DNA of 64,000 nucleotides from contig CAVJPS010000009.1 of the NCBI GenBank assembly GCA_963651465.1, positions 52,395-116,394 on the forward strand, read 5' to 3'. The notes beneath the pieces were generated by a model that worked only from the letters and a program-made list of their open reading frames with translations, was not told the DNA's origin and did not search any database. Shown here piece after piece: positions 4,261 through 29,205 of the stretch. The stretch's first letter is position 1; the number at the start of each line of letters is the position of its first letter. A program made the translations under genes and the position numbers. The stretch comes from a bacterium (GTDB lineage Bacteria; Bacillota_I; Bacilli_A; RFN20; CAG-826).

Positions 4261-5199
4261 TTGATGAAAAATAAATCATTACCTATTTTAGGACTTGCTT
4301 TAGGTTCAGTCCTAGCATTAACCGGTTGTAACGGTCAAGCAATTACACAAGAGAAAGCAAAAGCTAATTTACAAAAAGCTCAAGAAAAAGTTGAAGAAGC
4401 TAATGCATATACAGTAAACGTTTCTAGTAACATAACTGCTGCATTTAGTGCAACTTTAAACGATTCAACAACAAGCACTTCTTTAACTGCTACAAATAAT
4501 ATTAAAGGAGGAGTTAAACTAAACGAAGAAAAAACTTCTCAAGAAAAAAGTTTTATTACAACTGATATAAATTTATCTTCTCAAGTAAATAATGAAGCTG
4601 CTGAAACAGTAGCAACACAATCAACAAAATTATATTTTGTAAATGATTCCTTATATTCACAAATTGATTCATCTAAGAGTAAAGTTTCTCTTACAACTGA
4701 AATATTAGCAGAATATAGTGCATCTATTGATATTCCAGGCTTCTCTGCATCATTTAAATTAGATCTTAATGAATTAGTTGAAAATGTTGTTACAAAATAT
4801 TCAACTGAATCAAATGTCGAATACCGTCAATCGTTTGGTAAAACAATGTATATTTACCATATTCAAGAAAGCGCTGTTAAATCTACTGCTTCTGCAGCGT
4901 TAAGTTCAACTACTTCAGATAATACAGATACAACAACTTCAACATTAATTGCTTCATTAATGAGTGAATTTACTGTTAGTGATTCATATGTTAAATTTAC
5001 ATTCAATCAAAACGCTACATTCCTTGAACTTGAATCTGTAATTAACGCAAATGCTACTAAGAGTCTTGAAATTGGTTCTACTAAAGCATCAGTATCATTT
5101 AGCTATGCTTCAGCAGATAAAATCACATTTAACTTATCTGATAACTTAAGCGATAGTGATTTCCCATCAACAGAAGAATTAAATAATTGGGTACTCTAA
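4261..5199 (+). CDS. Ser/Thr-rich lipoprotein, function unknown
   Basis: Signal peptide with lipobox LTGC. Low-complexity S/T-rich sequence, with an RBS AAGGAGG upstream. Confidence 0.6.
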   Translation: MMKNKSLPILGLALGSVLALTGCNGQAITQEKAKANLQKAQEKVEEANAYTVNVSSNITAAFSATLNDSTTSTSLTATNNIKGGVKLNEEKTSQEKSFITTDINLSSQVNNEAAETVATQSTKLYFVNDSLYSQIDSSKSKVSLTTEILAEYSASIDIPGFSASFKLDLNELVENVVTKYSTESNVEYRQSFGKTMYIYHIQESAVKSTASAALSSTTSDNTDTTTSTLIASLMSEFTVSDSYVKFTFNQNATFLELESVINANATKSLEIGSTKASVSFSYASADKITFNLSDNLSDSDFPSTEELNNWVL

Positions 5200-7729: not shown

Positions 7730-10123
7730 TTAAGCACCAATTACAATGTTAACAATTTTGCCTTTAACAACAATAATCTTTTTGATTTCATGGCCATCAA
7801 CAAACTTTTTAACATTTTCATTTGCAAGTGCAATTTCTTTAATTCTATCTTCTGTTTCATTAACAGAAATATTAATTGTACCTCTTAATTTACCATTAAC
7901 TTGAACACCAATTGTAACTTCATTTTTAACAAGTTTACTTTCATCAAATGTAGGCCATCTTTCATAGTCAATAATATTAGAATTGCCCATTAATGACCAT
8001 AATTCTTCACCGACATGAGGAGTAATTGGGAACATTAATTTAATAAAATTAAGCATATATGGTTTATAAATAGAATTAGCTTTATATACTTCATTAATAA
8101 ATATCATCATTGCGGATATTGCAGTATTAAATTGTAAATTTTCAAAGTCTTCAGTAACTTTTTTAACAACTGCATTATATGCAAAATCTAATGAACCATC
8201 ATTTGTATCACTGAATTTAGATGTAAATTGTTCATCAGTATATAAACGGAATACACGTTCAATAAAACGTTTAGCACCATCAAGACCACCAGTACTCCAA
8301 GGCAATGAAGCATCAAGAGGTCCCATAAACATTTCATATAATCTTAAAGTATCAGCACCATAGTCATTACAAATATCATCAGGGTTAACAACGTTACCTC
8401 TTGATTTAGACATTTTTTCGCCATTTTCACCTAAAATCATACCTTGGTGGAATAATTTCTTGAATGGTTCTTCAACTGGTACTATACCTTTATCGTGTAA
8501 ATATTTTGTATAGAAACGAGAATATAATAAGTGTCCAACAGCGTGTTCTGCTCCACCAATATATAAATCAACCGGTAACCAGTGTTTCATTAATTCTTCA
8601 TCACACATTGCATTTTCATTATGTGGATCAATATAACGAATAAAGTACCATGAGGAAGCAGCACTACCTGGCATTGTTGTAGTTTCTCTTTTACCACCTT
8701 TATATTTAACCCATTCTTCAGCATTTTCAAGTGGAGGTTGTCCATTTACTTTTGCCTTATATTGGTCTAATTTAGGTAATATAAGTGGTAATTCACTATC
8801 AGGTAATAATTCATCATGGTCAGCATAGTGAACAACAGGAATTGGTTCACCCCAATAACGTTGACGAGCAAAAATCCAGTTACGTAATTTGTAAGTTACT
8901 TTACGGCCACCAACTTTATTTTCTTCTAACCAGTTATACATTGTTTCTTTAGCTTCAGCAATATTTTTACCATCTAAGAAGCCACTATTAACGTGAAGTC
9001 CATCTTCTTCGTAAGCACCTTTTGAAATATCGCCACCAGATACAACTTCAATCATATCTAAACCAAATTTCTTAGCAAAAGCATAATCACGACTATCGTG
9101 ACTTGGAACAGCCATAACTGCACCAGTTCCGTAACTTCCTAAAACATAGTCACTAATCCAAACTGGAATCTTTTTACCATTAACAGGATTAATAGAGTAA
9201 GCCCCTGTAAATACACCAGTTTTATCTTTATTTAATTCAGTTCTATCTAAATCACTTTTACGGCTAACTTCTTCTTTATATGCTTTAACAGCACTTTCTT
9301 GTTCTTTAGTTGTAATTTTATCAACTAAAGGATGTTCAGGGGCTAAAACAACATAAGTAGCACCGAATAAAGTATCGCAACGTGTTGTAAATACTTCAAA
9401 AGTATCGTCACTATCTGCGATTTTAAATACAACTGTAGCACCTACTGATTTACCAATCCAGTTACGTTGAATTTCTTTTGTGGATTCAGGCCAATCAATA
9501 GTATTTAAACCATCTAATAATTTTTCAGCATATTTAGGAATTTCAATAACCCATTGTTTCATGTTTTTACGAACAACAGGGAAACCACCACGTTCAGATT
9601 TACCATCAATAATTTCATCATTAGCTAAGACTGTACCTAATTCTTCACACCAGTTAACTGGCATATCAACATATTTAGCAATACCATCTTGAACCATTTG
9701 TTTAAAAATCCATTGTGTCCATTTATAATATTCAGGATCACAAGTAGCAATTTCTTTAGACCAGTCATAAGACAAACCTAACATTTTAATTTGTCTTTTA
9801 AATGTTTCAATATTTTTACGAGTAAATCCATCTGGGTGATTACCAGTATTAATTGCAAATTGTTCTGCTGGTAAACCAAATGCATCCCATCCCATTGGAT
9901 GTAAAACATTAAATCCTTGCATTCTTTTCATACGGGATACAATATCAGTTGCAGTATATCCTTCTGGGTGTCCAACATGTAAGCCATTTCCAGATGGATA
10001 TGGAAACATGTCTAAACAATAAAATGGTTTTTTAGAAAAATCACGGACATCACAATAATATGTATTATGTTCTTCCCAATATTTTTGCCATTTTCTTTCT
10101 ATAGCATAGAAATCATAAATCAT
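7730..10123 (-). CDS. leuS: leucyl-tRNA synthetase
   Basis: 797 aa with the class I HIGH (HVGH) and KMSKS motifs and the LeuS editing-domain layout. Confidence 0.95.
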
Positions 10124-10134
10124 ATTTAAATCCT

Positions 10135-10385
10135 CCTTATAAATATAAAAACGTCCTTAATAATAAGGACGTTTAGTAAACGCGGTACCACCTTAATTCA
10201 TAACTATTACAATAATAATTATGCACTTCATTTATTATCATTAACGCTGATAAACGGATATTTCTATAATGTCGAGTTCATTACATCATCATGTTAATTT
10301 TCACCAACCATTAACTCTCTATAAAGATTAAGTAATTACTACTACATTTATCAAAATTATTTTACCAAATTAATAAGTTATGTCA
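10135..10385 (-). ncRNA. T-box leader (tRNA-sensing riboswitch) controlling leuS
   Basis: On the minus strand there is an AGAGA stem-I motif (reverse complement near 10305-10320). The conserved T-box AATTAAGGTGGTACCGCG is the reverse complement of 10177-10194. An intrinsic terminator AAACGTCCTTATTATTAAGGACGTTT plus T-run lies just before the leuS RBS. Confidence 0.8.
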
Positions 10386-10396
10386 ATAATAATAAA

Positions 10397-12076
10397 TTAA
10401 TTATTAGTGCTTACTTTGTACATTTGAATTTGTTTTTGACCACTTGTGTAATTTAAGAAACGTGGGCTACCACTATTATATTGAATATATCCATAAGATT
10501 CTGTAACATTTAAAATCTTAACATTATTTGATTCAAAGCTAATTGACCAAGTTGAACCTGTACCTGTTAAAGTTAAATTTTTATTATCACTAGCACCAAC
10601 ATATTGTCCATCAGATGTTTTTAATTTCCAAGCACCAGAAGAACCTTCTAATGTGAAGATCATAGCACTTGCTGGAACAGTAACGATTGAATTCGTACCA
10701 AATGTTGCAGCAGCACTTGTAAAGTATTTAGTTTGGAATGATGAAGCAACTACATTACAATCTTTACAGCCTAAGATGAAATTCATACCTGCAACAAGTG
10801 AATCAGTACTTGTTACTAAATCGTATTTTACAGTACTCTTTTCAGTTGTAATACCCGAAATAGAAACTCTTTGTCCACAATAATATGCATAAACTTTAGT
10901 ACAGCCTTCGCCTAAGTTTCCAGTGTAATCTGATGAATTAACAAATCTAACAATTGAATTACTTAATGTAACTTTTGTGTTATCACTATAATTAGCAGTA
11001 AATGTAAGACCAGTTGGGTCAAATTCATCACCTGCAGTGTAAGTTGTTTTTGTTAAAGTACCACTAACTGATACAGAAGTTAATCTCTTACCGACTGATA
11101 AAGATGTATCTTCTAAAGCACCAGCACCATTATACGTTGAATCCCAAATCATTGTTGCAAATTCAGGATGATCAATAAATGGGTTACGGTTACCTTGAAT
11201 ATCATCAGTAGCATTATTACGATATAATTCATTATATGAAGGAGCATATTCATTGTTCCATTCAAGTAATGTTGATAATTTACCAAAAACTTTATCAGTT
11301 TTACTTGCAGTTTCACCAACAGTATAGCCTAATGAAGCATAGCGAGTTGCAACATAGAAAATACTTCTAGCAGCATCTCCTCTATATGCATTGTTAGGAT
11401 CAAAAGCAACGCTTGAATATTTAGATTCAGTATTACGAGGAGTACCTCCCATATCTGTTTCGGTTGCTGTTGTACCATCCGTAACAAAGTCATAATATAA
11501 GTCACCACGTGTATTATTAATATCTTTTTCTGATGGGTGAACATTATAAATGTCTGAACCAGCATAGGAATCTTCATAGTCACCTAAGAACGATTGACAC
11601 CAAACATGTTCACGATTGATACGACCTTTAAAGTCCCCATCAAATTTAAATGGTGTACCTGTATAATAGCCAACCATTTTTGAACTATCATATAAATCAG
11701 GATCACTAACTGGATAATAAGTTGATAATCCATTATAAGAAACTTGCTTAATAGTATGTTTACTAGTTGTTAAAGTAGTAAGTGCACTTAATAAAGCACT
11801 ACCTTTTAATCCTCTTACAGATTCATAATAATCATCACTGACGACAGAAGGTTCAGTAATAATTTCACTTTTATAAGTTATGCCACCAACTGTATTACTA
11901 TTGTCATTATCATCATTATTATTGTTATTGTCATTATCATTATCATTATTGTTATTGTTGTCATTATCATTGTCATTAACATTTTCTTTTTCGTTATTCT
12001 TACAAGAACTTAATAAAAATGATGTAGTAGTACATAAAGCAACTAACCCTAGTACTAATAATTTATTTTTTTTCAT
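10397..12076 (-). CDS. extracellular Endonuclease I-family nuclease lipoprotein with Asp/Asn repeat linker
   Basis: Start MKKNKLL with a GAGGAG RBS; lipobox LSSC. Endonuclease I (EndA/Vvn/Bsn) motifs are present: REHVWCQS, NVHPSEKDINNTRGD, RGDAARSIFYVATRY and QGNRNPFIDHPE. Confidence 0.75.
   Translation of the reverse strand: MKKNKLLVLGLVALCTTTSFLLSSCKNNEKENVNDNDNDNNNNNDNDNDNNNNNDDNDNSNTVGGITYKSEIITEPSVVSDDYYESVRGLKGSALLSALTTLTTSKHTIKQVSYNGLSTYYPVSDPDLYDSSKMVGYYTGTPFKFDGDFKGRINREHVWCQSFLGDYEDSYAGSDIYNVHPSEKDINNTRGDLYYDFVTDGTTATETDMGGTPRNTESKYSSVAFDPNNAYRGDAARSIFYVATRYASLGYTVGETASKTDKVFGKLSTLLEWNNEYAPSYNELYRNNATDDIQGNRNPFIDHPEFATMIWDSTYNGAGALEDTSLSVGKRLTSVSVSGTLTKTTYTAGDEFDPTGLTFTANYSDNTKVTLSNSIVRFVNSSDYTGNLGEGCTKVYAYYCGQRVSISGITTEKSTVKYDLVTSTDSLVAGMNFILGCKDCNVVASSFQTKYFTSAAATFGTNSIVTVPASAMIFTLEGSSGAWKLKTSDGQYVGASDNKNLTLTGTGSTWSISFESNNVKILNVTESYGYIQYNSGSPRFLNYTSGQKQIQMYKVSTNN
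11890..11980 (-). repeat. in-frame GAT/AAT-type codon repeat encoding a (D/N)n linker
   Basis: On the plus strand the tract reads gtcattatcattatcattattgttattgtt...; it encodes DNDNDNNNNNDNDNDNNNNNDDNDN. Confidence 0.8.
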
Positions 12077-12157
12077 ATATAATCTCCTCATCAATATATT
12101 AACATATTATATTGTTTTATTAAAACAATAAATATTAACCACCTTTACAAATATATA

Positions 12158-12181
12158 AAAGCCACCGAAGTGGCTTTATAC
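12158..12181 (-). terminator. rho-independent terminator after nuclease gene 2
   Basis: Hairpin AAAGCCACTTCGGTGGCTTT next to the stop codon. Confidence 0.6.
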
Positions 12182-14143
12182 TTAAGCACTATAGTTAATA
12201 CCTAATCCCATTAAATAGAATGTGCTATTAACATTAGTAATCTCAATTTTAACTACACCAGAAGTTTCAGCAAAATTTATTTTAAAATCTGATGCTTGTC
12301 CATCACTACTATAAGTAATATCTGTAGTGCCTACGAGTACATCATTAACATATCCTTTTAATGTATAAATCTTACCCGATCCAGGTAAACAACATACATG
12401 TATAGATGAGACGTTATTTAAAGATTCAACACTTGTAAACGTTACAGTACCAGCACTTTTAGAAGAACTACTAATTTGAATACCTTTATTAGTTTTAAAA
12501 CTATACGAATTTTTAGTGCCAGTAAACTTATAAACAAACTCTTTATTACTTAATAAAATATTATGATCAGTGTTAGCAGCAGTTGTTGTACCATTTTTGT
12601 CCTTGTCTAATTCATTTTTATTTGCAAATGTATGAGTCCAAGTACAAGCAGTATAGTCAGCATCTAATACTTCAATATTGTACTTAATTAATTGACCATG
12701 TACATTCACAATAATTTCTCGACTTGATGAAATATCACTATTTGTAAATGTATAGTTATATTGAGTACCAATTGTGGTATAGTTATCAACAGCAACTGGA
12801 GTTTCACTATAATCGTATTTAACAGCTACAACATTAAAATCAGAAGATTTAAATGTTTCGCCTACTTTATAAGTATGTTTAACATTATCAATTGCATAGT
12901 AAGCTATTTGATCTTTATCTAATTGTAAACGTTTTGCTGAAGGACGTAAACTTTCAAGTGAACCAGCTTGGTCTTGTTTAGAACCAAATGCATAATCAAC
13001 AAGTTCAGGATAATCAACATAAACATTACGATTACCTTGTTCACTATAAACATAAGTCATATGTTGATATTCTTCTCTATCAACTGGAATTTCATTGAAA
13101 CGAAGTAAATCACTTAAATTACCATGTGAATATAAATAAGCTCCTACTGGATTCTCAGTTAAAGTAACACCTTGGTTATAAACTAATTTTTTAACTGAAC
13201 CATCTTCGTTATATAAAGTATTAATTACATCATTTCCGCTTTCATCCTTAACTGTTTCAGTTGCTTTAGTAGTATCATTTGCGTAATCTAATGTATTATC
13301 GTCAAATAATGTTGCAATATAGAAAATAGAACGTGCAAGTTTACCTTTATCTTCATCAGCAGGTTCAAATGTATTGTTTGTACTATCTAATATTCCCGAA
13401 TACTTAGTTGAAGTAGTACCGGTAGTAGTATCTGCATAACCCAAGTTATTGTTACTACGTGCGCCATTACCTGCTTGGTTAGATGCCCATAAGTTGTGAA
13501 AGTCAGTAGCCCTTCCTTTATATTGGACAGCATCACCAGTCATAACTCCTGTCATTAAAGATGCACAGAAAGCATGTTCTCTTTGCCAACCACCAGTTTT
13601 ATTACCATTAGTATCGGTTTTCCATTCATCATTACTACTATAAACAACATTAACCATTGAGTGATTAAATAATGATTGGTCAGCTTTCTTATTTGTAAAC
13701 CAGTTAGCAGAATTACCTTCTGAATCTGTTCCGTTATAATGATTCATAGTATAACCATTTTTCATTAAATCTTTTAATTTAGCTCTTAAATCTGCTCCAT
13801 CAGTCCAACTAGTTAAGTTGTTATAGTAATTTCCATATGCTGCAGGAATAGCGTAGGTAGTTCCTTCGGCATCTTCAGTATCATCATACAAATGTAATGT
13901 ACTATAGTCTTCACTAGGTTCAACTGGGTCTACCGGATCAACAGGATCTACAGGATCTACTGGGTCTACCGGATCAACAGGATCCACAGGTTCAACCGGA
14001 TCTACAGGATCTACTGGGTCTACCGGATCAACAGGATCAACCGGCTCCACAGGAGTGTTATTGTTATTTTTATCCTTACAACCCACAAATGTAAAAGATG
14101 AAATTAACAATAACGGTATAATAAATAATCTTTTCTTTCTCAT
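12182..14143 (-). CDS. extracellular Endonuclease I-family nuclease lipoprotein with (PVD)n repeat linker
   Basis: 653 aa with lipobox FVGC. Motifs: [46 protein letters not shown] and [14 protein letters not shown] paralogue of the upstream nuclease gene. Confidence 0.75.
13915..14055 (-). repeat. about 15 tandem copies of a 9-nt unit (GGATCNACN) encoding PVDPVDPVE...
   Basis: Periodicity is directly visible: ccggatcaacaggatctacaggatctactgggtctaccggatcaacagga... Confidence 0.85.
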
Positions 14144-14240: not shown

Positions 14241-14711
14241 ATGATTAAATTAGAAATTGAAAATTACGGTGATATTTTATTAGAATTAGATCCTAAAAAT
14301 GCACCTTTAACAGTAGAAAACTTTGAAAAATTAGTATCTAAAGGTTTTTATGATGGTTTAACTTTCCATCGTGTAATTAAAGGATTTATGATTCAAGGTG
14401 GTTGCCCAAAAGGTAACGGTACTGGAGGTCCTGGTTATACTATTAAAGGTGAATTTAGTTCAAACGGTGTAAATAACCCTATTGAACATAAACGCGGAGT
14501 AATCTCAATGGCTCGTGCATATGACCCTGATTCTGCAGGTTCTCAATTCTTTATTATGCATAAAGATGCACCTTATTTAGATGGACAATATGCTGCATTT
14601 GGTCATGTTGTAGAAGGAATCGAAGTTGTAGATAAAATTGCTTCAGTTCGTACTTCACCAAGTGACCGTCCACTTGAAAGAGTTGTTATTAAAAAAGCAT
14701 CTATTATCTAA
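14241..14711 (+). CDS. ppiB: peptidyl-prolyl cis-trans isomerase (cyclophilin type)
   Basis: 156 aa with [13 protein letters not shown] and the SQFFI motifs. Confidence 0.9.
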
Positions 14712-14724
14712 TTAAATTTAAAAA

Positions 14725-14768
14725 ACAAAAAACGTTAAGGTTATTTCCTTAACGTTTGTTTTTTTATT
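14725..14768. terminator. bidirectional terminator between ppiB and adhE
   Basis: AACGTTAAGG-ttatttc-CTTAACGTT hairpin flanked by A and T runs. Confidence 0.7.
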
Positions 14769-17394
14769 GTCCGACTTTTGTACCTTTATAAGCACATTTT
14801 AAGATTTCTTCCATGTCTTTTACAAGAGGTACTCTTGGGTTAGCTGGTGAGCATTGATCTTCGTAAGCAAGAACTGCGATTCTTTCAATTTTAGAATTCC
14901 ATTCTGCTTCATCAATACCTAATTTATCAAATGAAGTTTCAAGTCCAATATCACGAGCTAATTCTTCACAAGCTGTAGCAAGAGCTTCAACACCTTGTTC
15001 TGGAGTTTCAGCTTTTAATCCTAATAAATGAGCAATTTCAAGATATTTCTTGTCTGCACAGTAGTGATTATATTTTGGCCATACTGATAATTTTGTTGGA
15101 ACTTGACCATTATATCTAATTACGTATGGTAAGAAGATAGAACATGTATAACCGTGAACTGTATGGAATTCAGCACCTACTTTATGTGATAAAGAGTGAG
15201 CCATACCTAAGAATGCGTTAGCAAATGCCATACCAGCAATTGTTGCAGCATTGTGCATTTTTTCACGTGCTTCTAAATCGTTTTTACCATTTTTAACACA
15301 ACGAGGTAAATATTCAAATACTAATTTGATTGCTTGTAATGCTAAACCATCAGTGTAGTCATTTGCAAGAACACTAGCATATGCCTCAATAGCGTGTGTT
15401 AAGACATCCATACCAGTCATAGCTGTTGGGCGTGCTGGTAAATTAGTTGTAAATTCAGGATCAACAATAGCAACTGTTGGAGTAAGTGAATAGTCTGTTA
15501 AAGGATATTTCTTGTTATTTGCTTTATCGGAGATAACAGCAAATGGTGTAACTTCTGAACCAGTACCAGATGTAGTAGGAATACAAATTAATTTTGATTT
15601 CTTACCTAATTCTGGATACTTAAATGCTCTTTTACGAATATCCATAAATTTTTGTTTTAAATCATCAAAGTTAACTTCTGGGTGTTCGTAGAATAACCAC
15701 ATACCTTTTGCACAGTCCATAACACTACCACCACCAAGAGCAATAATAGTATCAGGTTGGAATGAATTCATTATTTCAGTACCTTTTCTTACAGTTGAAA
15801 TATCTGGGTCAGGTTCAACTGCTGTAAATAATTGAATTGTAACATCGTTTCTTCTTAAATTTAATTGTTCAGTAATCTTATCTAAGAAACCGAATTGAAC
15901 CATTGAGTTATCTGTAACAATAAATACTTTTTCTAAACCACGGCATGATTGTAAATATTGAATTGAATTTCTTTCAAAATAGATTTTACTTGGAACTTTG
16001 AACCATTGCATAGTATTTCTTCTTTTACCTACTTTCTTGACATTTAATAAATTGACTGCTGAGATATTACCTCCAACAGAGTTATGACCATAAGAACCAC
16101 AACCTAATGTTAATGAAGGAAGGAATGAGTTATAAACATTACCAATACCACCAAATGTTGAAGGTGAATTCCAAATAATTCTCATAGCTTTTACTTTTTC
16201 ACCAAATGCATCAGCCATTGCTTGATCATGACAATGAATTGCAGCACTATGACCTAAACCATTAAATTCAACCATTTGAGCTGCTTTTTCAAATCCTTCA
16301 TTTTCGTCTTTAACTTTAAAGATTGCTAGGACTGGTGAAAGTTTTTCTCTTGATAAAGGTTCGTTGACACCAACTTCACTACATTCAGCACAAATAATTG
16401 ATGTATCTGCAGGAACTTCAAATCCAGCTTCGTGAGCAATAAATGAAGCACTCTTACCAACAATTACAGGATTTAATTTTGCTAATTGAACTTGATCTTT
16501 TGATTCAACACCAAACATATATTTTTCAAGTAATGCTTTTTCTTGTTTATTAACAAAGTAAGCTTTAAATCTCTTAAATAAATCTTTTGCTTCGTTATAA
16601 ATTTCAGCATCGATAATAGCAGCTTGTTCAGAAGCACAAATCATACCATTATCGAATGATTTAGATAATACGATATCATTAACTGCTTGTTCGACGTTTG
16701 CACTCTTATTGATATAAGAAGGAACATTACCAGCTCCAACGCCTAAAGCAGGTTTACCACATGAGTATGCAGCTTTAACCATTGCATTACCACCAGTTGC
16801 AAGAATTGTAGCAACACCAGGGTGATTCATTAATGCACTAGTTGCATCCATTGAAGGATGTTCAATCCATTGAATACAGTTTTCAGGTGCACCAGCAGCA
16901 ACAGCAGCGTCACGCATAACAATAGCTGCTAATTTTGAACTTTCTTGTGCATTTGGGTGGAAAGCAAAAATAATAGGGTTACGTGTTTTTAAACAAATTA
17001 ATGATTTAAAAATAACAGTACTAGTTGGATTTGTAACTGGAGTAATACCACATACAACACCAATTGGATCAGCGATTTCAGTAATACCTGTTACTGGATC
17101 ATCTGAAATAACTCCAACAGTTTTTAAATGACGCATGTTATTAACAACATATTCACATGCAAATAAGTTTTTAGTAGCTTTATCTTCAAAGACACCTCTA
17201 CCTGTTTCGTCAATAGCAGCTTTTGCTAAAGTACCATGGTTATCTAACCCAGCAACTGAACATTTAGCAACGATGTAATCAATCTTTTCTTGATCTAAGT
17301 TTAAAAATTCATCTAATGCTACTTGTGCTTTTGAAACCAAGCCATTAACTTCAGCATTAACTTCTTCAATAGTTAAATTCACTTTTTCAGCCAT
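14764..17394 (-). CDS. adhE: bifunctional acetaldehyde-CoA/alcohol dehydrogenase
   Basis: 876 aa with an N-terminal ALDH domain and a C-terminal Fe-ADH domain. Confidence 0.95.
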
Positions 17395-17396
17395 AT

Positions 17397-18041
17397 TTAT
17401 TCTCCTTTGATTTTGTTATTTAACCTATGTGATAGCATACCTAATGAGGCAGCTAAATCAACATTTTCAACAACGATATTATCGTTAATATTAAGATGGA
17501 CAGGAACGAAATTCCAAATTGCTTTTATATTACACTTTTGTAATCTATCAACAATACTTTGAGCGTAATCGCTTGGGACAGTAAGAATTGCAATATTAAC
17601 ATTCAATTCTTTAATCTTATCTTCAAGCTCTGAAATACTATAAATTACTTTATCATTTATAACAGTTCCAATTTTTTGGGGATTATTATCAAAACCTGCC
17701 AAAATGTTTAATCCTATTTTATTAAATCCACTATAACGTAAAATAGCACCACCAAGGCCACCAGCACCAATTAAAATAGCATTAGTAACATCGTTATAAC
17801 CTAATATGTTTTCAATACTATTAATAAGTGTATTAACGTCACGGCCACAACCTGGTTTACTATTTTCTTTACTTATAGATTGAAAGTCTTTTCTAACTTG
17901 TTCTTCCGAACATTTAAATTCATTTGCTATGGTAGCACTTGAAACAGTTAGAATACCTTCCTCTTTTAAAGAATTTAAGTATTTTAGATACGCGGGATAT
18001 CTTTCGAGTTGTCTTTTTGTAATCGTCTTAATATTACCCAT
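17397..18041 (-). CDS. rex: redox-sensing transcriptional repressor Rex
   Basis: 214 aa with an N-terminal wHTH and a Rossmann GAGGLGGAI motif. Its stop abuts the adhE start. Confidence 0.9.
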   Translation of the reverse strand: MGNIKTITKRQLERYPAYLKYLNSLKEEGILTVSSATIANEFKCSEEQVRKDFQSISKENSKPGCGRDVNTLINSIENILGYNDVTNAILIGAGGLGGAILRYSGFNKIGLNILAGFDNNPQKIGTVINDKVIYSISELEDKIKELNVNIAILTVPSDYAQSIVDRLQKCNIKAIWNFVPVHLNINDNIVVENVDLAASLGMLSHRLNNKIKGE

Positions 18042-18183
18042 AATAACTCCTTTGGTATTTTTTTACCGAAGTTAATATAACATATAATGAACTTCCGTTC
18101 AATTGATTTTAACTAAAAAAATAAAGATAACGCTTACATAAATTTAAAGAAAAATAATAATAGCGCTTTCATTAAATTGCATT

Positions 18184-18212
18184 AAAAAAAGAGGAAAAAA
18201 TTTCCTCTTTTA
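18184..18212 (-). terminator. terminator after pflA
   Basis: AGAGGAAA-aaatt-TCCTCT hairpin plus T-run. Confidence 0.6.
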
Positions 18213-18215
18213 TTC

Positions 18216-18959
18216 TTATTTATAATTACCAATTTTTAAAACATTTTCTGCGTGCTTTACACTTTCTTTTGTTGGCATATTAACATCTTTTAAAGAATAT
18301 TCAATACCAAGTTCATCATATTTTGGTAATGCAAATGGATGATAAGGTAAAACCTCTAATCTTTTAATATTATTAAATTTAGCTAAGAAGTCACTACTTT
18401 TTTGAAGTACATCTTCACTATCAGTGTATCCTGGTAATAAAACATAACGAACCCAAATTGGAAAATTTATTTCATTAAGATAATTAAATAATTCTTGAAC
18501 GTTTTTACCGTCATGGCCAGTAATTTTAGTATGTAATTCTTCATTAGGTGCTTTTAAATCTAATAATAATAAATCAGTATATTTTAATAATTCTTTAAAC
18601 TTAGAGAAGAAAGGTTCTTCAAATGTAAAAGGTCCTCCTGCAGTATCAATACAAGTAGAAAAACCTTTTTCTTTGGCTTTCTTAAATAAATCAATTAAGA
18701 AATCAATTTGAAGTAATGGTTCACCACCACTAATAGTAATACCACCATTATCTCGCCAATAAGTTTTATATCGAGCAAGTTTTGCAAGTGCTTCATCACT
18801 AGTTATAGAAGTAGCATTCTTATTACTCCAAGTTTCAGGATTGTGACAATATAAGCAACGAAATGGACATCCAGATAAGAAAAGGACGGACCTGACACCA
18901 GGTCCATCCACTAAAGCAAATGATTCGAAACTTGAATAATAGCCAATTTCACTCATCAA
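18216..18959 (-). CDS. pflA: pyruvate formate-lyase activating enzyme (radical SAM)
   Basis: 247 aa with the CPFRCLYCHN cluster motif. Confidence 0.9.
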   Translation of the reverse strand: MMSEIGYYSSFESFALVDGPGVRSVLFLSGCPFRCLYCHNPETWSNKNATSITSDEALAKLARYKTYWRDNGGITISGGEPLLQIDFLIDLFKKAKEKGFSTCIDTAGGPFTFEEPFFSKFKELLKYTDLLLLDLKAPNEELHTKITGHDGKNVQELFNYLNEINFPIWVRYVLLPGYTDSEDVLQKSSDFLAKFNNIKRLEVLPYHPFALPKYDELGIEYSLKDVNMPTKESVKHAENVLKIGNYK

Positions 18960-21221
18960 TTATAAGCTTTCATGGCAAGTTCTTGAAATAACATCTAATT
19001 GTTGTTCTTTTGTTAAATCAATGAACTTAACTGCATATCCACTAACTCTAATTGTAAAGTTTTGATATTCTTCTTTTTCTGGATGATTCATAGCATCAAT
19101 TAATTTTTCAGTACCGAATACGTTAACATTTAAGTGATGAGCATCTTGATCAAAGTAGCCGTCTAAGATTTGAGCTAAGTTAACTTTTCTTTCATCATCA
19201 TTGTGACCTAAAGCATTAGGGTTAACTGTTTGAGTATTTGAAATACCATCTAAAGCATATTCATATGGTAATTTTGCGACTGAGTTAAGTGAAGCAAGTA
19301 AACCATTCTTTTCTGCACCATATGCTGGGTTAGCACCTGGTGATAATGGTTCGCCTTGTTTTCTACCATCTGGTAAAGAACCAGTAGCCTTACCATAAAC
19401 AACGTTTGAAGTAATTGTTAAAATTGAAGTTGATGGGACAGAATCACGATATGTGTGGTGTCTTGCAATCTTGTGCATAAAGACTTTTAATAACCAAACT
19501 GCGATTTCATCAGCACGGTTGTCATCGTTACCATAACGTGGGAAATCACCAATTGTTTCAAAATCAGTGACAATGCCTGTTTCGTCACGGACACATTTTA
19601 CAGTTGCATATTTAATAGCACTTAATGAGTCAACAACGTGTGAGAAACCAGCAATACCTGTAGCAAATGATCTTTCAACATTTGTATCAATTAATGCCAT
19701 TTCAGCAGCTTCATAATAATATTTATCGTGCATATAGTGAATGACATTTAAAGTATTAACATAGATTTCAGCAAGCCATTCCATCATAGCTTCGTATTTT
19801 GGTAAGACTTCATCATATGTAAGAATTTCACTTGTAATAGGTTTAATTTCAGGTCCGACTTGTTGGTGAGTTAATTCATCAACACCACCGTTTATTGCAT
19901 ATAATAAACATTTAGCTAAGTTAGCTCTAGCACCGAAGAATTGCATTTCTTTACCAGTCTTTGTAGCACTAACACAGCAGCAGATACTATAGTCATCAGT
20001 CCAAATTGGTCTCATAACACAGTCATTTTCGTATTGAATTGAACTTGTTTTAACAGAAATTAATGCAGCGTATTTCTTGAAAGTATCAGGTAATCTACTT
20101 GACCATAAAACTGTTAAGTTTGGTTCTGGTGCAGGTCCCATATTTTCAAGTGTGTGTAAGAAACGATAGTCGTTCTTTGTAACTAATGTACGTCCATCAC
20201 TACCCATACCAGCTACTTCAAGAGTTGCCCATACTGGGTCGCCTGAGAATAATTGGTTATATGATGGAATACGTGCGAATTTAACCATTCTGAATTTCAT
20301 AACCATATGGTCAACTAATTCTTGAGCTTCTTTTTCAGTTAATGTACCAGCAGCTAAATCTCTTTCAATATAAATATCTAAGAATGTTGAAATACGTCCA
20401 ACTGACATAGCAGCACCATTTTGAGTTTTGATAGCAGCTAAGTAACCAAAGTATAACCATTGGAATGCTTCCTTAGCGTTTTTAGCTGGTTCGCTAATAT
20501 CAAAGCCATAAATTTTAGCCATTTCTTTCATTTCTTTTAAAGCTTTGATTTGCATTGAAATTTCTTCTCTTAATCTAACGACATCTTCTGTCATACCTCT
20601 TAAACCAGTATATTTAAGATTGTCTTGTTTTTCAGCAATAATATTGTCAATACCATATAAAGCAACACGACGATAGTCACCAACAATACGGCCTCTACCA
20701 TATGTATCTGGTAAGCCAGTAATAATCTTGTTGTGACGGCAACGTAACATTTCATCAGTATAAGCATCAAAGACACCATCATTGTGAGTCTTATGATATT
20801 TTGTAAAGACTTCGTGAATCTTTGGTGAAGGTGTGTAACCGTAAGCTGTACATGCTTGTTCAGCCATTTTAATACCACCATAAGGCATAAATGCTCTCTT
20901 TAATGGTTTGTCTGTTTGAAGACCAACGACTTTTTCTAAATCTTTTGTTTCTTCGTCAATATATCCAGGACCGTAAGCTGTTAATGAGGAAACAATTTCA
21001 GTTTCCATATCAAGAACTCCGCCCTTTTTTCTTTCTTCAATTTGTAATGCACTTAACTTTTTCCAAAGAATATTTGTAGCTTCAGTTGCATCCTCTAAGA
21101 ATGATTCATCTCCAAGATATGGAGTGTAGTTTTCTTGAATAAAGTCTCTAACGTTAATAGAAGTTTTCCAATTTACGCCTTTAAAACTTTTCCAAGCAGT
21201 TTCATCAAAATTTTTGATCAT
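18960..21221 (-). CDS. pflB: formate C-acetyltransferase (pyruvate formate-lyase)
   Basis: The start was reassigned to [13 protein letters not shown], which has an AAGGAGG RBS. The C-terminal glycyl-radical motif is RVSGYAV, and the catalytic CC motif is present. Confidence 0.9.
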
Positions 21222-21292
21222 ATTTGTATATCCTCCTTGATAACCTAATGTAGAATAACACTTTTTAAATATTTTTAAAACATTTTTGCTCA

Positions 21293-21327
21293 AAAATGAA
21301 AATAAAACCCCTTTCATTTTATGAAAG
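21293..21327 (-). promoter_or_regulatory. palindromic candidate operator upstream of pflB (Rex- or FNR-like half sites TGAAA/TTTCA)
   Basis: The palindrome AAAATGAAA-n11-TTTCATTTT-ATGAAA lies 70-100 nt upstream of the pflB start. Confidence 0.3.
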
Positions 21328-21371
21328 ATGATTTATTAAAAGATTTTTCTCTCAATCTTACAAATAAAACA

Positions 21372-21400
21372 CAAAAAAGTAGGTTTTTGACGAACCTACT
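21372..21400 (-). terminator. terminator after glgA
   Basis: AAGTAGGTT-tttgacg-AACCTACTT hairpin plus T-run. Confidence 0.65.
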
Positions 21401-22836
21401 TATTTTTCTTTTGCTCCTCCATAAATATTTAAATATTCATCAGCAGAACGAGACCAGTCATTATTACATGACATAGCATTTAGTCTTAATTTTTTAAATA
21501 AATCTTTATTGTCGTAGCATTTAATAGCCCAGTCAATTGTATTCACAATTGCATGCTTGTCATATGCGTAAAAACCAAATCCTGTTGCAACGTTTTCATT
21601 TCCTTCAATAGCAGGAATAACAGTATCATTTAATCCACCAGTCATACGGACTAATGGTAATGTACCATAACGAAGAGCAATCATTTGGCCAATACCACAA
21701 GGTTCAAATAATGACGGCATTAAAAAGATATCACTTGATGCATAAATCATATGAGCCAATCCATCATTGTAACCAATATAAATTCCCATTTGATTTGGAT
21801 ATTCTGCTCTTAGTTTTTCAAGCTCTTGTTCAAAACCATATTCCCCACTACCAAGAACAATTAATGAAGCTCCACTTGATAAAATTTTGCGTGCTCCTTC
21901 GATGACTAAATCAGCACCTTTTTGCCAAGTTAAACGAGATACCATACCAAATAAAGGTTTGTCAGTTGGTGAAAGATGCATTTCTTCAAGTAATGTATCT
22001 TTATTTTCTTTTTTACCTTCTTCTATAGTTTTCTTAGTATATGTTTTTTTAATTTTCTTATCTTTTGCTGGATTAAATTCGACATAGTCGATACCATTTA
22101 AAACGCCACAGAAATCATAACGTCTTAATTCGAGCACTGTATGTAAATCATGTCCACTATTGTCACTTAATAATTCTTCAGCGTGAGTAGGACTTACAGT
22201 TGTAATTTTATCACAATACATAATTGCAGCTTTTAAAGTACTACATTCATTGTTGTAACGAATTGCACCATTATCGTATAATTCGTCACTTAATCCATAG
22301 TAATCATTGATAAAATAACGATTAAACATTCCTTTAAATGCTGGATTATGAATGGTTAATACAAAACGTGTATTTTTAAATACATCTTCGTATCTATTTT
22401 GTTCTTTAATTAAAACTGGTAGCATTCCAACTTGCCAGTCATGAATATGAATAATGTCAAAGCATAAATTCTGTTCTTGAATTATTTTACGAATTCCTAA
22501 AGTAAAGAAAGCAAAACGTTCATTATCGTCATCATAACCGTATAAATTGTCACGGTTAAAATACCTTACATTACCTAAAAGGTAATAAGTAATGCCGTCA
22601 ATTTCAGTTTTATAAACTTCACATTCTTGATTACGCCATGATAATTGAACACTATATTTTGCTAAAGGTGTTACTCTAATATTATCATTATTACGAATTT
22701 TATCGTAATACGGAATAACAATACTAACTTCGTGACCTTTCTTAACGAGTTCAGCTGATAAAGCATGAACTACATCAGCTAGACCACCAGTTTTAGCTAA
22801 AGGGGTAGATTCACTTGCACACATTAAAATTTTCAT
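21400..22836 (-). CDS. glgA: glycogen synthase
   Basis: 478 aa with the KTGGLADV N-terminal motif. Confidence 0.9.
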   Translation of the reverse strand: MKILMCASESTPLAKTGGLADVVHALSAELVKKGHEVSIVIPYYDKIRNNDNIRVTPLAKYSVQLSWRNQECEVYKTEIDGITYYLLGNVRYFNRDNLYGYDDDNERFAFFTLGIRKIIQEQNLCFDIIHIHDWQVGMLPVLIKEQNRYEDVFKNTRFVLTIHNPAFKGMFNRYFINDYYGLSDELYDNGAIRYNNECSTLKAAIMYCDKITTVSPTHAEELLSDNSGHDLHTVLELRRYDFCGVLNGIDYVEFNPAKDKKIKKTYTKKTIEEGKKENKDTLLEEMHLSPTDKPLFGMVSRLTWQKGADLVIEGARKILSSGASLIVLGSGEYGFEQELEKLRAEYPNQMGIYIGYNDGLAHMIYASSDIFLMPSLFEPCGIGQMIALRYGTLPLVRMTGGLNDTVIPAIEGNENVATGFGFYAYDKHAIVNTIDWAIKCYDNKDLFKKLRLNAMSCNNDWSRSADEYLNIYGGAKEK

Positions 22837-22837
22837 A

Positions 22838-23953
22838 TTAGATAATATCTCCTTGTTTTACGTAAAGTGGATTTTTAGATGTTCCATTTAATTTTTTAAC
22901 AGTAATAACTCGAGCGTACTTATCAACAATACAATTTTCTAAAATAGTATCGTTACCTACAACACAATATCCTAGAATAACAGAATTTTTAATAACAGCG
23001 CCTTCACCAATTACTACTCCACGAGAAATAACACTATTTTCAACTTTCCCGTTAATAATTGCACCATTTGCAACAAACGAATTTGACACATCAGCCTTAC
23101 GGCCATAACGAGTTGGAGGTGTGTCGTGAGTAACTGTATAAATTGGCCACTCGGGTTTAAATAATTCTTTACGAGCATCGTAAGATAATAATTCAGTTGA
23201 TACTTCTAAGTATTTTGCCATTGAATCAACTATACGAACAAAGCCATCATAACGATATCCACGAATATCGTATTTTTTTACATTGTAAGCTAAGAACTCA
23301 CTTAAACTAAAAACCGCGGATTGTTCACTAGATTCTTTTAATATGCGTTTTAAAGTTGACATTGACATAACGTAACTTTCCATTGAAATATCAGCTTCGT
23401 CATCAATACCACGATTTTGACGAATATGATGTACTTTATTAGAATCTTCGTTAAATAATAATTTATCATAACCAACACTATCAACTTTAGCATTAGTCAT
23501 ATGAGTATAAACAATAGTTATGTCAGCGTTACTCTTAATATGTTCATCAATTACTTTAGAATAATCAATAGCACATAAGAAATGAACTGGAGCAATAACA
23601 ACTAAATCAGCACTACTTGCTAATAAGAACCAGTCATTAGCACGAATGTTATTCAAGTCATTATTGTAACGAGGGTTATGATAATATTCCTCATTTTGCA
23701 TAATGACGTTTTTACCAATTTTAGTATTTAAGTTCCATGAGTTATGGAAACCTAAATGTTTATTTAAAGAACGGATATGATGTTTACATAACACACCAAT
23801 TTCATCAATTCCTGAATTAGAAAAATTCGATAAAGTAAAATCAATAAAAGCAAAACGTCCTAAGAAGGAAGTAGATGCTAATGAACGTGATGAAGTTAAT
23901 TCACCAATATCAGGAGAAACGTGTAAATTACAAAAGCCAATAACTCTTCTCAT
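22838..23953 (-). CDS. glgD: glucose-1-phosphate adenylyltransferase regulatory subunit GlgD
   Basis: 371 aa GlgC paralogue. It lacks the canonical GGxGxRL motif. Firmicutes-type glgCD pair. Confidence 0.8.
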   Translation of the reverse strand: MRRVIGFCNLHVSPDIGELTSSRSLASTSFLGRFAFIDFTLSNFSNSGIDEIGVLCKHHIRSLNKHLGFHNSWNLNTKIGKNVIMQNEEYYHNPRYNNDLNNIRANDWFLLASSADLVVIAPVHFLCAIDYSKVIDEHIKSNADITIVYTHMTNAKVDSVGYDKLLFNEDSNKVHHIRQNRGIDDEADISMESYVMSMSTLKRILKESSEQSAVFSLSEFLAYNVKKYDIRGYRYDGFVRIVDSMAKYLEVSTELLSYDARKELFKPEWPIYTVTHDTPPTRYGRKADVSNSFVANGAIINGKVENSVISRGVVIGEGAVIKNSVILGYCVVGNDTILENCIVDKYARVITVKKLNGTSKNPLYVKQGDII

Positions 23954-25140: not shown

Positions 25141-25186
25141 ATTTTAATAATATATGAAAAAAAGTGTCGATAAAAATCGACACTAA
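25141..25186 (-). terminator. terminator after the SMC-like ATPase gene
   Basis: AGTGTCGA-taaaaa-TCGACACT hairpin overlapping the stop codon, followed by a T-run on the minus strand. Confidence 0.7.
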
Positions 25187-28100
25187 TTCTTAATTTTATT
25201 TTCTTCAGCATATAATCTAACACTTGATGAACTCTTATCGTGTAATACGACTAATGTTTCATCAACAAGTTCACTAATATCTGCAACTTTGTCAGATGGT
25301 GCTGATAAAATAACTTGTAAACCAAATTTACCTAATAAACGAATAGATTCTTTGATTCTGCCTCTATCCATTTTAGAGAACGCTTCATCAAAGATAATAA
25401 GTCTAAATGAGTTACCTAAATCGCCTGGTTCATTAACACGGTATAATTGAGCAAATGATGCAAGAACTGCAATATAGAAAGGTGTTTGTGTTTCACCACC
25501 GGATTTTTTCTTAATTGTTTTTGATAAACGTTGTTCAACACCATCTTTATCAGTGACAACAATATCAAAATCAAGATAAGAACGATAATCTGTGAATTTT
25601 TCAACATTAGCTAAAACTGCAGCATTACGATCACCATGATCACCAACATCAACAATTTGACGGAATAAATCATCCATTACTTCTTTATATTTATTAACGA
25701 AGGCACTATCATCTTCACCCATTTCAAGTAACAAGTCATCTTTAATCATATCGTAATAACGACGATATTCAACTGATGGCTTTACAATAAAACGATATTT
25801 ATCGTTACCGAATTGTGAACTTTCTAATGCAATGTTAAGATCATCAATTTGTGTTTCAACAGTTTCAATAGCTGTTCTTAATTTATTGATGAAATCATCT
25901 TTAAATTCTTTTGTAGCTTTACGGTATGAATCATCAATTGCTGCTTGATATTGTGGTAATTTAATATCACGCATTTCAGTTAATTCATTATCATAAACAT
26001 GGTTATCTGGTCCATCAACATCGTAAGTTAAACGATAATCACGAACATAGTCTTTACGAAGTTTTACAACATTGTTCTTTAATGAGTTAGCAAAGTATTG
26101 AACTTTAGATAAACTAATCTTTGTTTCACCAATAATATCAATTGTTGATTTACCTTCGTCAACTAATTTTTGATATTCAACATTACCAATTTCATCAACA
26201 AAGAAACCATCATATGCATTTTCTAAGCGATCTTTACGTCCTTGTGCATTAGCTTCTTCAGCAGGTAATTTGTCTTCTTTGTATGTTGAAATTTGGTTTT
26301 GTAAATTACCTTTTTCAAGAATTAAGTTTTCTTTATTAGAAGCCAATTCTTGTAAATCACGTTCAAGATCTTCGATACGTTGATCAAATGATTTAATTTG
26401 TGTTAAATCATGCTTGCCTAATTCTTCGTTAATGTAAGCTAAGTTACCTTCAATAGCTTTTATTTGAGAAGTCTTTTCGATAAAACTAATAGAAGAAGAA
26501 ACTTCGTATGAGTTAATAACTTCTAAGTCACTTGCAACTGAAATAACATTACGAAGTGAGCAATATGTTTCAGTTAATTTTTGACTATCGATAACATCTT
26601 GGTGTTTTGCTTTAATTTGTTCAGCACCAATACGGCGGCCAATATAAGAAACATTATATGTCTCAGGTCTTAAAACAGATAATGTGAAATTACGATATAA
26701 ATCACATTCTTTAGTAATACCATTACCAGAGTTACGAGCTTCCTTAACATTTTGACACTTCATTAATCGACCAATTAAGAAGTTACTATAAATACGAGCT
26801 CCCACGTGATCAGTAATAATTTCTTCAGCAAGAGATCCTCTTTCACAAGCAAAATTCTTTTCGATAATCTTTGCTTGGTCAACTAAAGATGTACCATAGA
26901 AACTTGTTCTAGAACATAATTCTTTTAAAATTTCATGAGCTTCTAAATAATATTCAGGTTCAACAAATAAATTGAATTTTTGGTTATTTAAGAATCCTTC
27001 AATTGCTTTACCCCATTTTTCATCTCTAATGTCAATAAGGTCAGCAAATATAGCCACTTCAACTGGTTTTCCATGACGGCGAGTTAAAGCACCAGCCAAT
27101 TCATTTTTAACAAATGTTAAACCACGAACATAAGACTTACCACCATTTTGCATATCACTTTCTTGTTGCTTTAATATAGCAGTTTTTTGTTCGTTTAGAG
27201 TAATAATCTTATTTAAATTAACATTTAAATAAGAAATATGACGACGGAAGTTTTCTAGTAAAGTACGCCAGTTTTGTAAAATTTCAACTGAAACAGTACT
27301 TAAATCAACTAAGAACTTATCTTTGAATAATAAACATTGATCACGAACTTCACGAGAAATATCCATTAAAGTAGAGATATCGTCCATATTTTCTTCACTA
27401 ACTTTGCTTAAATCAATATTTTCTAAAGTTTGGTTAATTGATTCTGCACATTCTAAATAAGAAGTAGCATAACGCATTAAGTTAGAACGAACTGTATCTT
27501 CGTTATCGTGAATTTCTTTTAATTGATCTTCATATTTCTTCTTTTCTTCCCATAATTCATCAGTTAACTTATATGTGTCATTAGATAACTTATCAGCAGT
27601 TAACTTTTCTTTTTTACGAGTAAGTTGTGAAGTTTGATCTTCATTATAGGCTAAATCAGCTTCGATTTCTTTTAAACGTTTTTCAGCTGAACTAATAGCT
27701 TCTTGGTATGTTCTAATACGAGCTAAGTCATTTTCGTATTCAGCTCTTTCAATAATATATGAATATAAAGTTTCATTTTTACGTTGTGAAACTTCTTTTT
27801 GATAAGCGGCATTAATTTCATTTAAACGGCTAATACGTTGAGCCATTGTATTAGCTTCGACTTGTAATTTCTTATATTGCAAAATATTTTCTTGCATTGA
27901 AGTAATATTAATATTTGCTTGAGAATCACAAATGTATTCAGTAATAAACGTTTCAATATCAGTAATTGGTGTAAACGAAACAGCCTTCTTAAATAATGAG
28001 AAGTATTTATCTTTAAGACCACCAAAACGACGTTTTAATAAGTCTTGATATTGCTTATTAGTATCTAGGAAACGATATTTACCAGCATAATTTTCTTGGA

Positions 28101-28563: not shown

Positions 28564-29204
28564 TAATCTTCACCTCCATAACTAGAATTTAAACGATCTA
28601 ATGCTTCACTCATTGCAGCAATTTTTTGATTGTCAACTGCAAATGTAATTGAAGGTAAGATATAGAAAGAAACGTTACCTTCATCAAATGAACCAGTAAC
28701 TTTTGAAATAATATTGTGTTGATAAGCAAAACGCAAGCAACGTCCTAGTAAACGTCCTGTTAATTTCTTACCTTGCATTACAATACCATGGTCAAGCATA
28801 AATCTTAATAACTCGCCTGTAGTTAAATAAACATTTTTACCTGAACCTAAAGTTGACTCACTTTGTTCATCGTTTTGTTCTTCATAAATAAATCTTAATG
28901 TAAATAAGATAAGAGAAATTTCACGATCAATTTTTAAACGGTTTTGATCATAATTGTTTTTAATAGCAATGACACCATTGCCAGTATCTTTATCAATTGT
29001 CCAACCAGCATATTTTAAGTAAATTTCAAACATTTCGTAATAGCGTTCAATAAAACGATAATCAGAACTTACTTTAATCATTTTATCTCTAGAATCGTAA
29101 TATTCACGAACAATGAATGATTCACTTAGTAAATTATTAACAACTTCACTAAACATTCTTTGGTCAGCAGTTGATAACTTTTCATATTCTTCTTCGAATA
29201 ACAT
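28563..29204 (-). CDS. JetB/MksE-like (DUF4194-type) small subunit
   Basis: 213 aa acidic protein lying between the kleisin-like and ATPase genes. Size and position match JetB/MksE. Assignment is by architecture, not by a motif hit. Confidence 0.55.
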   Translation of the reverse strand: MLFEEEYEKLSTADQRMFSEVVNNLLSESFIVREYYDSRDKMIKVSSDYRFIERYYEMFEIYLKYAGWTIDKDTGNGVIAIKNNYDQNRLKIDREISLILFTLRFIYEEQNDEQSESTLGSGKNVYLTTGELLRFMLDHGIVMQGKKLTGRLLGRCLRFAYQHNIISKVTGSFDEGNVSFYILPSITFAVDNQKIAAMSEALDRLNSSYGGED

Positions 29205-29205
29205 A

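Follow-up and report, generated by a model that had tools for sequence, protein, structure and literature searches.

Two adjacent endonuclease I genes with predicted lipoprotein anchors and distinct C-terminal modules in an uncultured Bacilli lineage

The closest described relatives of the system analysed here are Vibrio vulnificus Vvn (PDB 1OUO/1OUP), the endonuclease I (EndoI) proteins of Vibrio cholerae and V. salmonicida (2G7E, 2PU3), and Escherichia coli EndA, all members of family PF04231. Periplasmic endonuclease I is a soluble, single-domain protein of ~210 aa, and its activation on export has been attributed to disulfide bonds (PMC5714182). We analysed a 64-kb stretch of bacterial DNA (contig CAVJPS010000009.1 of GCA_963651465.1; hereafter the window) in which two genes, head-to-tail and both on the minus strand, encode proteins that have in common with these enzymes the PF04231 domain, the His-Me finger core, and the RGxxAR and QGNxN motifs. 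Gene A (10397..12076) encodes protein 1 (559 aa), and gene B (12182..14143) encodes protein 2 (653 aa). Unlike the periplasmic enzymes, each adds a predicted lipid anchor, a long stalk, an immunoglobulin (Ig)-like domain and a binding-type module. We conclude, with a probability of about 0.75, that both genes encode active, surface-tethered, sugar-non-specific endonuclease I (His-Me finger) nucleases, and that they are old paralogues rather than the products of a recent tandem duplication.

Multi-domain members of the family have been described before. PF04231 domains are typically fused to Ig-like surface domains, and the extracellular RNase Bsn of Bacillus subtilis is listed as a family member (PMC5714182). 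In Flavobacterium johnsoniae, EndA1 and EndA2 (Fjoh_4721/4723) are likewise a near-adjacent pair of multi-domain PF04231 nucleases at the outer surface, and they are induced by phosphate starvation (PMC8115612), a response that fits scavenging. The F. johnsoniae nucleases are partnered with fn3 and lamin-tail (LTD) domains, whereas the window proteins carry a Big_3-like Ig domain followed by a beta-trefoil or by a jelly roll resembling carbohydrate-binding module (CBM) families 6 and 35. The window pair also differs in its low-GC Bacilli host and in its lipoprotein anchor.

A functional likeness exists in the mycoplasmas, where membrane nuclease lipoproteins (Mhp379, MnuA, Mpn133) serve nucleotide acquisition and degrade host DNA and neutrophil extracellular traps (NETs) in reduced low-GC bacteria. 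These proteins belong to the thermonuclease/SNase-like or EEP families, not to PF04231, and the likeness is one of function rather than homology.

Nuclease domains and catalytic residues

A previous reading made from the sequence alone had assigned both products to the endonuclease I family, and a domain search bears this out. Protein 1 matches PF04231 with 107.4 bits (E = 1.2e-30; nuclease domain at aa 80–325, 11102..11839), and protein 2 with 58.8 bits (E = 9e-16; nuclease domain at aa 96–400, 12944..13858), where the curated gathering score is 25 bits; all features of the two genes lie on the minus strand. The motifs quoted in that reading (EHVW/EHAF, the HN-L/HP-S region and QGNRNP/QGNRNV) are all present in the sequence. 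The sequence identity of the domain here is ~24% to E. coli EndA (MAFFT) and 16–20% to Vvn and the Vibrio EndoI structures (Foldseek structural alignment).

We aligned both nuclease domains with E. coli EndA (MG1655 record) and with homologues, using MAFFT. Invariant across this alignment are the Glu-His pair, the Asp of DxxN, the helix Asn with the Arg that follows it, the Pro, Gly, Arg and Tyr of RGxxAR..Y, a Glu, and the Gln, Asn and Asn of QGNxN. In protein 1, these columns are occupied by E156 and H157 (11606-11611), D175, N187 (11516-11518), R190, G233, R237, Y241, E283, Q294, N296 and N298, and the catalytic-motif residues are at least 90% conserved among 100 homologues. The counterparts in protein 2 include E189 and H190 (13574-13579), D214, N226 (13466-13468), R229, G267, R271, Y275, E358, Q369, N371 and N373; its catalytic-motif residues are invariant in 103 homologues, except R229 (at least 90% conserved), and R188 and H216 are likewise invariant. 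The catalytic residues predicted from the sequence (Glu-His, Asn, RGxxAR and QGNRN) are therefore aligned with those of EndA and conserved in about 100 homologues of each protein.

The comparison extends to the crystal structures. The family profile of protein 1 matches Vvn and the Vibrio endonuclease I structures (1OUP/1OUO) with an E-value of 5e-17, and that of protein 2 matches the Vvn structures with an E-value of 4e-4, although a phmmer search of the PDB with the single sequence of protein 1 gave no match. The family consensus of both proteins aligns with the Vvn 'NGDRSN' motif. The AlphaFold2 (AF2) models have a mean predicted local distance difference test score (pLDDT) of 85.1 for protein 1 and 82.5 for protein 2, with nuclease cores mostly above 90. 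Both models show a strand, an omega-loop, a second strand and a helix; strand 1 terminates in the His, and the helix that follows strand 2 contains the Asn. By Foldseek, Vvn and V. cholerae endonuclease I are among the structural matches of the protein 1 model. Protein 2 has a beta-rich insertion of ~55–60 aa (about aa 282–340) between the RGxxAR helix and QGNRN, where pLDDT is low at aa 290–320.

Work on Vvn assigns the role of general base to His80 and a contact with Mg2+ to Glu79; Asn127 touches both the metal and the scissile phosphate, and Arg99 serves to stabilise the transition state (PMC5758888). In a beta-beta-alpha-metal site of the same kind, His157 (protein 1) or His190 (protein 2) would activate a water molecule, and Glu156 or Glu189, together with Asn187 or Asn226, would hold Mg2+. 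Extracellular DNA would then be nicked without sequence specificity. RNA is probably a substrate too; the membership of RNase Bsn in PF04231 indicates that the family can act on RNA.

Anchors, stalks and C-terminal modules

Each protein begins with a basic n-region, a hydrophobic core and a lipobox, and the proposal that LSSC and FVGC are lipoboxes holds up. In protein 1, the signal peptide and lipobox occupy 12002..12076 (MKKNKLLVLGLVALCTTTSFLLSS followed by Cys25); in protein 2, they occupy 14078..14143 (FVG followed by Cys22). Under a lipobox rule of the PROSITE PS51257 type, with the Cys within positions 15–35, both LLSS-C25 and FVG-C22 qualify as lipoprotein-type signals, and an alignment of 103 family members shows Cys22 of protein 2 conserved to at least 90%. 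The precursors would accordingly be exported by Sec, lipidated on Cys25 or Cys22 and cleaved by signal peptidase II, placing the mature proteins on the outer face of the membrane.

Between the anchor and the first folded part, both AF2 models are disordered. The stalk of protein 1 (aa 26–79, 11840..12001) is an acidic, Asn/Asp-rich, low-complexity segment with an isoelectric point (pI) of 4.05 and a pLDDT below 50 at aa 16–58 and 70–79, and its DNA contains tandem repeats at 11893-11983. The stalk of protein 2 consists of 15 Pro-Val-Asp/Glu units (13916..14053) encoded by a 9-bp tandem repeat (TRF array 13920-14054; repeat family D1). These stalks, the second of them a proline-rich (PV[DE])n rod, would space the catalytic domain from the membrane.

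The length of the second stalk apparently varies in copy number between conspecific metagenome assemblies. In two other conspecific assemblies, the orthologues of protein 2 have 9 units (635 aa) and 46 units (746 aa), compared to 15 here, and they differ in length in the stalk only. In the same assemblies, the neighbouring peptidyl-prolyl isomerase (PPIase) is identical, the nucleases are 99–100% identical, and the stalk of protein 1 is unchanged. Two short-read Logan contigs from the same samples (L007 and L008, from SRR13434647 and SRR13434646) also have an identical PPIase, and each breaks off within the repeats that encode the N-terminal part of protein 2. Repeat counts from metagenome-assembled genomes (MAGs) need caution, because a 9-bp array breaks short-read assemblies. 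Mollicute lipoproteins classically vary in size through in-frame repeats.

Beyond the nuclease domains, the two proteins part company. The sequence-only reading had described their C-terminal extensions as long and divergent; they are in fact unrelated, with fold prediction giving an Ig-like domain and a beta-trefoil in protein 1, and an Ig-like domain and a jelly roll in protein 2. The Ig-like spacer of protein 1 (aa 330–413, 10838..11089) matches Big_3 (PF07523, E = 4.8e-5, 24 bits versus a cutoff of 21.2) and is all-beta in the AF2 model (pLDDT 80–94). The spacer of protein 2 (aa 408–495, 12659..12922) has a weak Big_3 match (E = 0.04) and is also modelled as all-beta (pLDDT above 90).

The terminal module of protein 1, which we call CTD-A (aa 414–559, 10400..10837), is predicted to be a beta-trefoil (pLDDT above 90). 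Its structural matches by Foldseek are FRG1, FGF1, Symfoil, the lysenin C-domain, the botulinum protein HA33, BEL lectin and fascin, with target template-modelling (TM) scores of 0.63–0.70. Searching 1.84 billion representatives exhaustively with HMMER gave 1441 relatives at E ≤ 1e-3. Among the best 150, two to five copies of the module are found in 64, a lipobox-like N-terminus in 35 and an endonuclease I domain in 31. A Pfam scan of 62 of the best relatives detected PF04231 in 15, the separate nuclease family PF01223 (Endonuclease_NS) in 2 and clostripain in 3, along with many Big_2, Flg_new, CHB_HEX_C and Fn3_assoc modules. No Pfam model tested covers CTD-A itself (the best weak match, Fascin, has an E-value of 0.007 and is below threshold), and it has no sequence relative among solved PDB structures. 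Members of the family share an invariant Asn..Arg-Phe..Tyr.Ser cluster, in which an almost invariant Pro precedes the Arg, and two Trp residues are conserved as well; the invariant Asn, Arg, Phe and Tyr are N534, R539, F540 and Y543 in protein 1. We rejected a ricin-type lectin (CBM13), since RicinB_lectin_2 is found in only 1 of 28 family members (E = 0.21) and aa 414–559 contain no QxW lectin repeats, as read from the sequence.

The terminal module of protein 2, CTD-B (aa 496–653, 12185..12658), is a predicted beta-jelly-roll. Foldseek matches it to CBM6, CBM35, CBM61 and CBM86 modules (1gmm, 1uxx, 1o8s, 2w3j, 4qb2, 6sgf, 2xom); for the first five of these structures, E-values are 5e-5 to 2e-4 and target TM scores 0.43–0.52, and identity to the structural matches is 8–16%. 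No CBM Pfam family matches protein 2, even at E ≤ 1. CTD-B is found in 118 of the 120 protein 2 homologues listed and is therefore integral to the architecture of this subfamily. CTD-A is absent from protein 2, and neither module was found elsewhere in the window. The proposal that the two C-termini differ in targeting agrees with these results, as the modules are distinct and, by their Foldseek matches, look like targeting modules. The Ig-like spacer would present the trefoil or the jelly roll for docking on a glycan matrix or on nucleic acid, with different targets for the two proteins, and the fragments released would feed nucleotide and phosphate salvage.

Several observations weigh against an active, lipid-anchored and module-targeted nuclease pair. 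No equivalent of Vvn Arg99 can be aligned, as a shorter loop stands in place of the Cys-rich proteobacterial omega-loop; within it, Arg211 of protein 2 is conserved (13511-13513, family alignment), and protein 1 has no Lys or Arg. At the 'DxH' motif, where most members have His, protein 1 and its closest relatives have Tyr or Phe. Each of the two nuclease domains has one Cys and lacks the eight-Cys disulfide framework known from the periplasmic enzymes; the disulfide-stabilised fold is a trait of the proteobacterial subgroup, not of the whole PF04231 family. The pI values are 4.6–4.7 for the nuclease domains and 7.0–8.5 for the C-terminal modules, with no clear electrostatic signature of DNA binding. 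Neither lgt nor lspA occurs in the 64-kb window. Finally, the ligand-binding role of both C-terminal modules is read only from fold similarity (TM about 0.45–0.70, identity 8–16%).

Origin of the pair and its genomic setting

The description of the two proteins as paralogues stands at the level of the PF04231 family, but not in the sense of close paralogues: their nuclease domains are 26–27% identical. The further proposal of a local duplication followed by C-terminal divergence is not supported, and a recent tandem duplication was rejected on the strength of this identity. Protein 1 is closer to three proteins encoded elsewhere than to its neighbour. One is a third paralogue (P0002, 447 aa) on another contig of the same genome (GCA_963623825.1, CAVFNR010000011.1; L010 1957-3300, and also L009), with 57–62% identity to protein 1 (62% in the nuclease domain); the others are P0098 and P0078, for which the precomputed Pfam assignment is PF04231 alone and identity is 38–43% (38% for P0098). 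P0002 has a signal peptide without a lipobox and a Ser/Thr-rich linker; CTD-B was not detected in it, despite a suggestive MAFFT co-alignment. Downstream of P0002 are genes for a 670-aa Flg_new-containing protein and then for a 503-aa protein without a Pfam match.

Protein-2-type genes also occur without a partner. On two independent metagenome contigs, such a gene stands alone between ftsZ and ileS-lspA (L013 6001-7926 and L014 6001-7806). The order on these contigs is mraZ-rsmH-(small ORFs)-ftsA-ftsZ-[nuclease]-ileS-lspA-rluD; the cluster is without mur or pbp genes, and lspA lies two genes downstream of the nuclease lipoprotein gene. In the nearest relative by leucyl-tRNA synthetase (LeuRS, 78%; L016, from gut metagenome ERR2597442), ppiB and leuS are separated only by a 71-aa open reading frame (ORF), and the ppiB-leuS locus contains no trace or remnant of either nuclease gene.

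On the grounds of low identity, closer relatives elsewhere, solitary protein-2-type genes and a nuclease-free locus in the nearest relative, the pair appears to be a lineage-specific juxtaposition of two old paralogues, from two old subfamilies, at a plastic locus. Insertion by a mobile element is not supported: no meaningful direct or inverted repeats flank the pair, and the GC content equals that of the surroundings (~30% at the gene pair, as elsewhere in the window). This locus is a hotspot for changes in gene content. In the region beyond ppiB (compared over 14241-23953 of the window), the window carries adhE-rex-pflA-pflB before glgA/glgD/glgC, and the L016 contig has an aminotransferase gene, dapF and asd there.

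The gene boundaries are as follows. A mechanical ORF list extends gene A to a TTG at 12094, but the ATG at 12076 is preceded by a GAGGAG ribosome-binding site, and the resulting protein 1 is identical to an NCBI protein of 559 aa (P0001; 100% identity over 100% of the query). The exact sequence of protein 2 has no entry in the protein collection searched, and its best relatives are ~600-aa lipoproteins named 'endonuclease [Bacilli bacterium]' from MAGs, with 33–44% identity. The long ORFs are intact under translation table 11; therefore, TGA is read as a stop codon.

A hairpin resembling an intrinsic terminator lies directly 3′ of gene B (12158..12177, minus strand), with the GC-rich AAAGCCACTTCGGTGGCTTT followed by a T-run. 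Consequently, genes A and B are probably transcribed as separate units. Gene A has no terminator of its own between its stop codon and the T-box leader of leuS (Rfam RF00230, 98.4 bits; 10162-10351, minus strand), which is directly upstream of leuS (7730-10123, minus strand) and has a terminator-like hairpin at 10149-10174. A near-consensus promoter (TTGACA-16-TAAAAT with TG, 10359-10386) is located immediately past the gene A stop codon. The upstream neighbour of gene B, on the opposite strand, encodes a cyclophilin-type PPIase (ppiB) and is followed by adhE.

The named matches of the window's LeuRS are 'Bacilli bacterium' (77%), 'Erysipelotrichaceae bacterium' (71%) and 'Anaeroplasma / Anaeroplasmataceae' (69%). 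By these matches, the organism appears to come from a low-GC lineage of Bacilli, so far uncultured, that lies close to the acholeplasma/anaeroplasma-erysipelotrich radiation. The contig of its nearest relative carries asd and dapF, which bear on the question of a cell wall.

Elsewhere, the window contains a type I Wadjet operon on the minus strand (25183-30639), with JetA at 29206-30639 (PADLOC E = 9e-132), JetB at 28563-29204 (PADLOC E = 2e-66) and JetC at 25183-28563 (1129 bits); none of the flanking ORFs tested proved to be JetD. A GlgC/D-like NTP-transferase gene lies downstream of the operon, and an ORF of 213 aa without a match lies upstream. At E ≤ 1e-5, Pfam gives no match for the sizeable ORFs at 61453-63843, 42152-43396, 34316-35593 and 4261-5199 (796, 414, 425 and 312 aa).

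Alternative roles and significance

Other functions for the pair have to be weighed against nutrient-scavenging surface nucleases. The proteins could act as a barrier that destroys incoming plasmid, phage or transforming DNA, or could process DNA for uptake. A barrier role has been ascribed to proteobacterial members of the family (periplasmic Vvn, EndA and Dns; PMC5714182), and the JetABC anti-plasmid operon indicates that this genome invests in DNA defence. However, PADLOC defence models give no match to either protein, no competence genes adjoin the pair (its neighbours being leuS with its T-box, ppiB and adhE), and distal lectin-like modules on long stalks suit an external matrix better than membrane gatekeeping. 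We consider this role unlikely. It is nevertheless compatible with feeding, as is the remodelling of matrix, NETs or biofilm; these functions are not mutually exclusive.

Remodelling could also be the principal function, with the C-terminal module acting as an adhesin for host mucin, dietary glycan or biofilm polysaccharide while the nuclease clears extracellular DNA from biofilm, NETs or mucus, and not for nutrition. The C-terminal folds do match lectins and carbohydrate-binding modules; the proteins that carry CTD-A are for the most part large surface proteins that also bear Big_2, Flg_new, CHB_HEX_C and Fn3_assoc modules, and they often have it in 2–5 copies; the closest relative comes from a gut metagenome; and the size-variable stalk resembles variable surface antigens. 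We still regard a mainly adhesive or remodelling function as quite unlikely, as CTD-A has neither the QxW lectin motifs nor a ricin-type Pfam match, and as beta-sandwich and trefoil folds bind many classes of ligand. It is far less probable that protein 2, or protein 1, is catalytically dead and kept as a nucleic-acid-binding surface protein. Protein 2 has a divergent nuclease domain (Pfam 59 bits; profile-to-Vvn E = 4e-4) with a low-confidence insertion of 55–60 aa, and protein 1 is without the 'DxH' His and the omega-loop Arg; yet in each family, over ~100 sequences, the His acting as general base, the Glu before it, the Asn that binds the metal and QGNRN are either invariant or conserved to at least 90%, which is the pattern expected under selection for catalysis.

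The nuclease call itself adds little, as homologues of both proteins are already labelled 'endonuclease' in public annotation. What is modestly new is the large CTD-A family, outside the Pfam models tested and often attached to secreted nucleases, together with the CBM-like module that is conserved throughout most of the listed protein 2 homologues and the apparent variation in stalk copy number. As a speculation that we hold only tentatively and think more doubtful than likely, CTD-A may define a large beta-trefoil family that serves as a substrate- or matrix-targeting module of secreted nucleases, and the pair may be two enzymes for different extracellular polymers, with a repeat-tunable proline stalk that sets their reach or antigenic appearance.

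The new part of the analysis is thus its domain resolution: an Ig spacer joined to a beta-trefoil or to a CBM-like module provides testable handles on the targets of such nucleases. If the differences in repeat length are real, the proline-rich stalk would offer a simple strain marker and possibly an instance of size-variable surface proteins beyond the classical mycoplasmas. Gut Bacilli near Anaeroplasma and Erysipelotrichaceae that are uncultured and have reduced genomes are thought to depend heavily on scavenged building blocks. The present organism has at least three endonuclease I paralogues, two of them with a predicted surface tether, which suggests a route by which such organisms may gain access to extracellular DNA and RNA.

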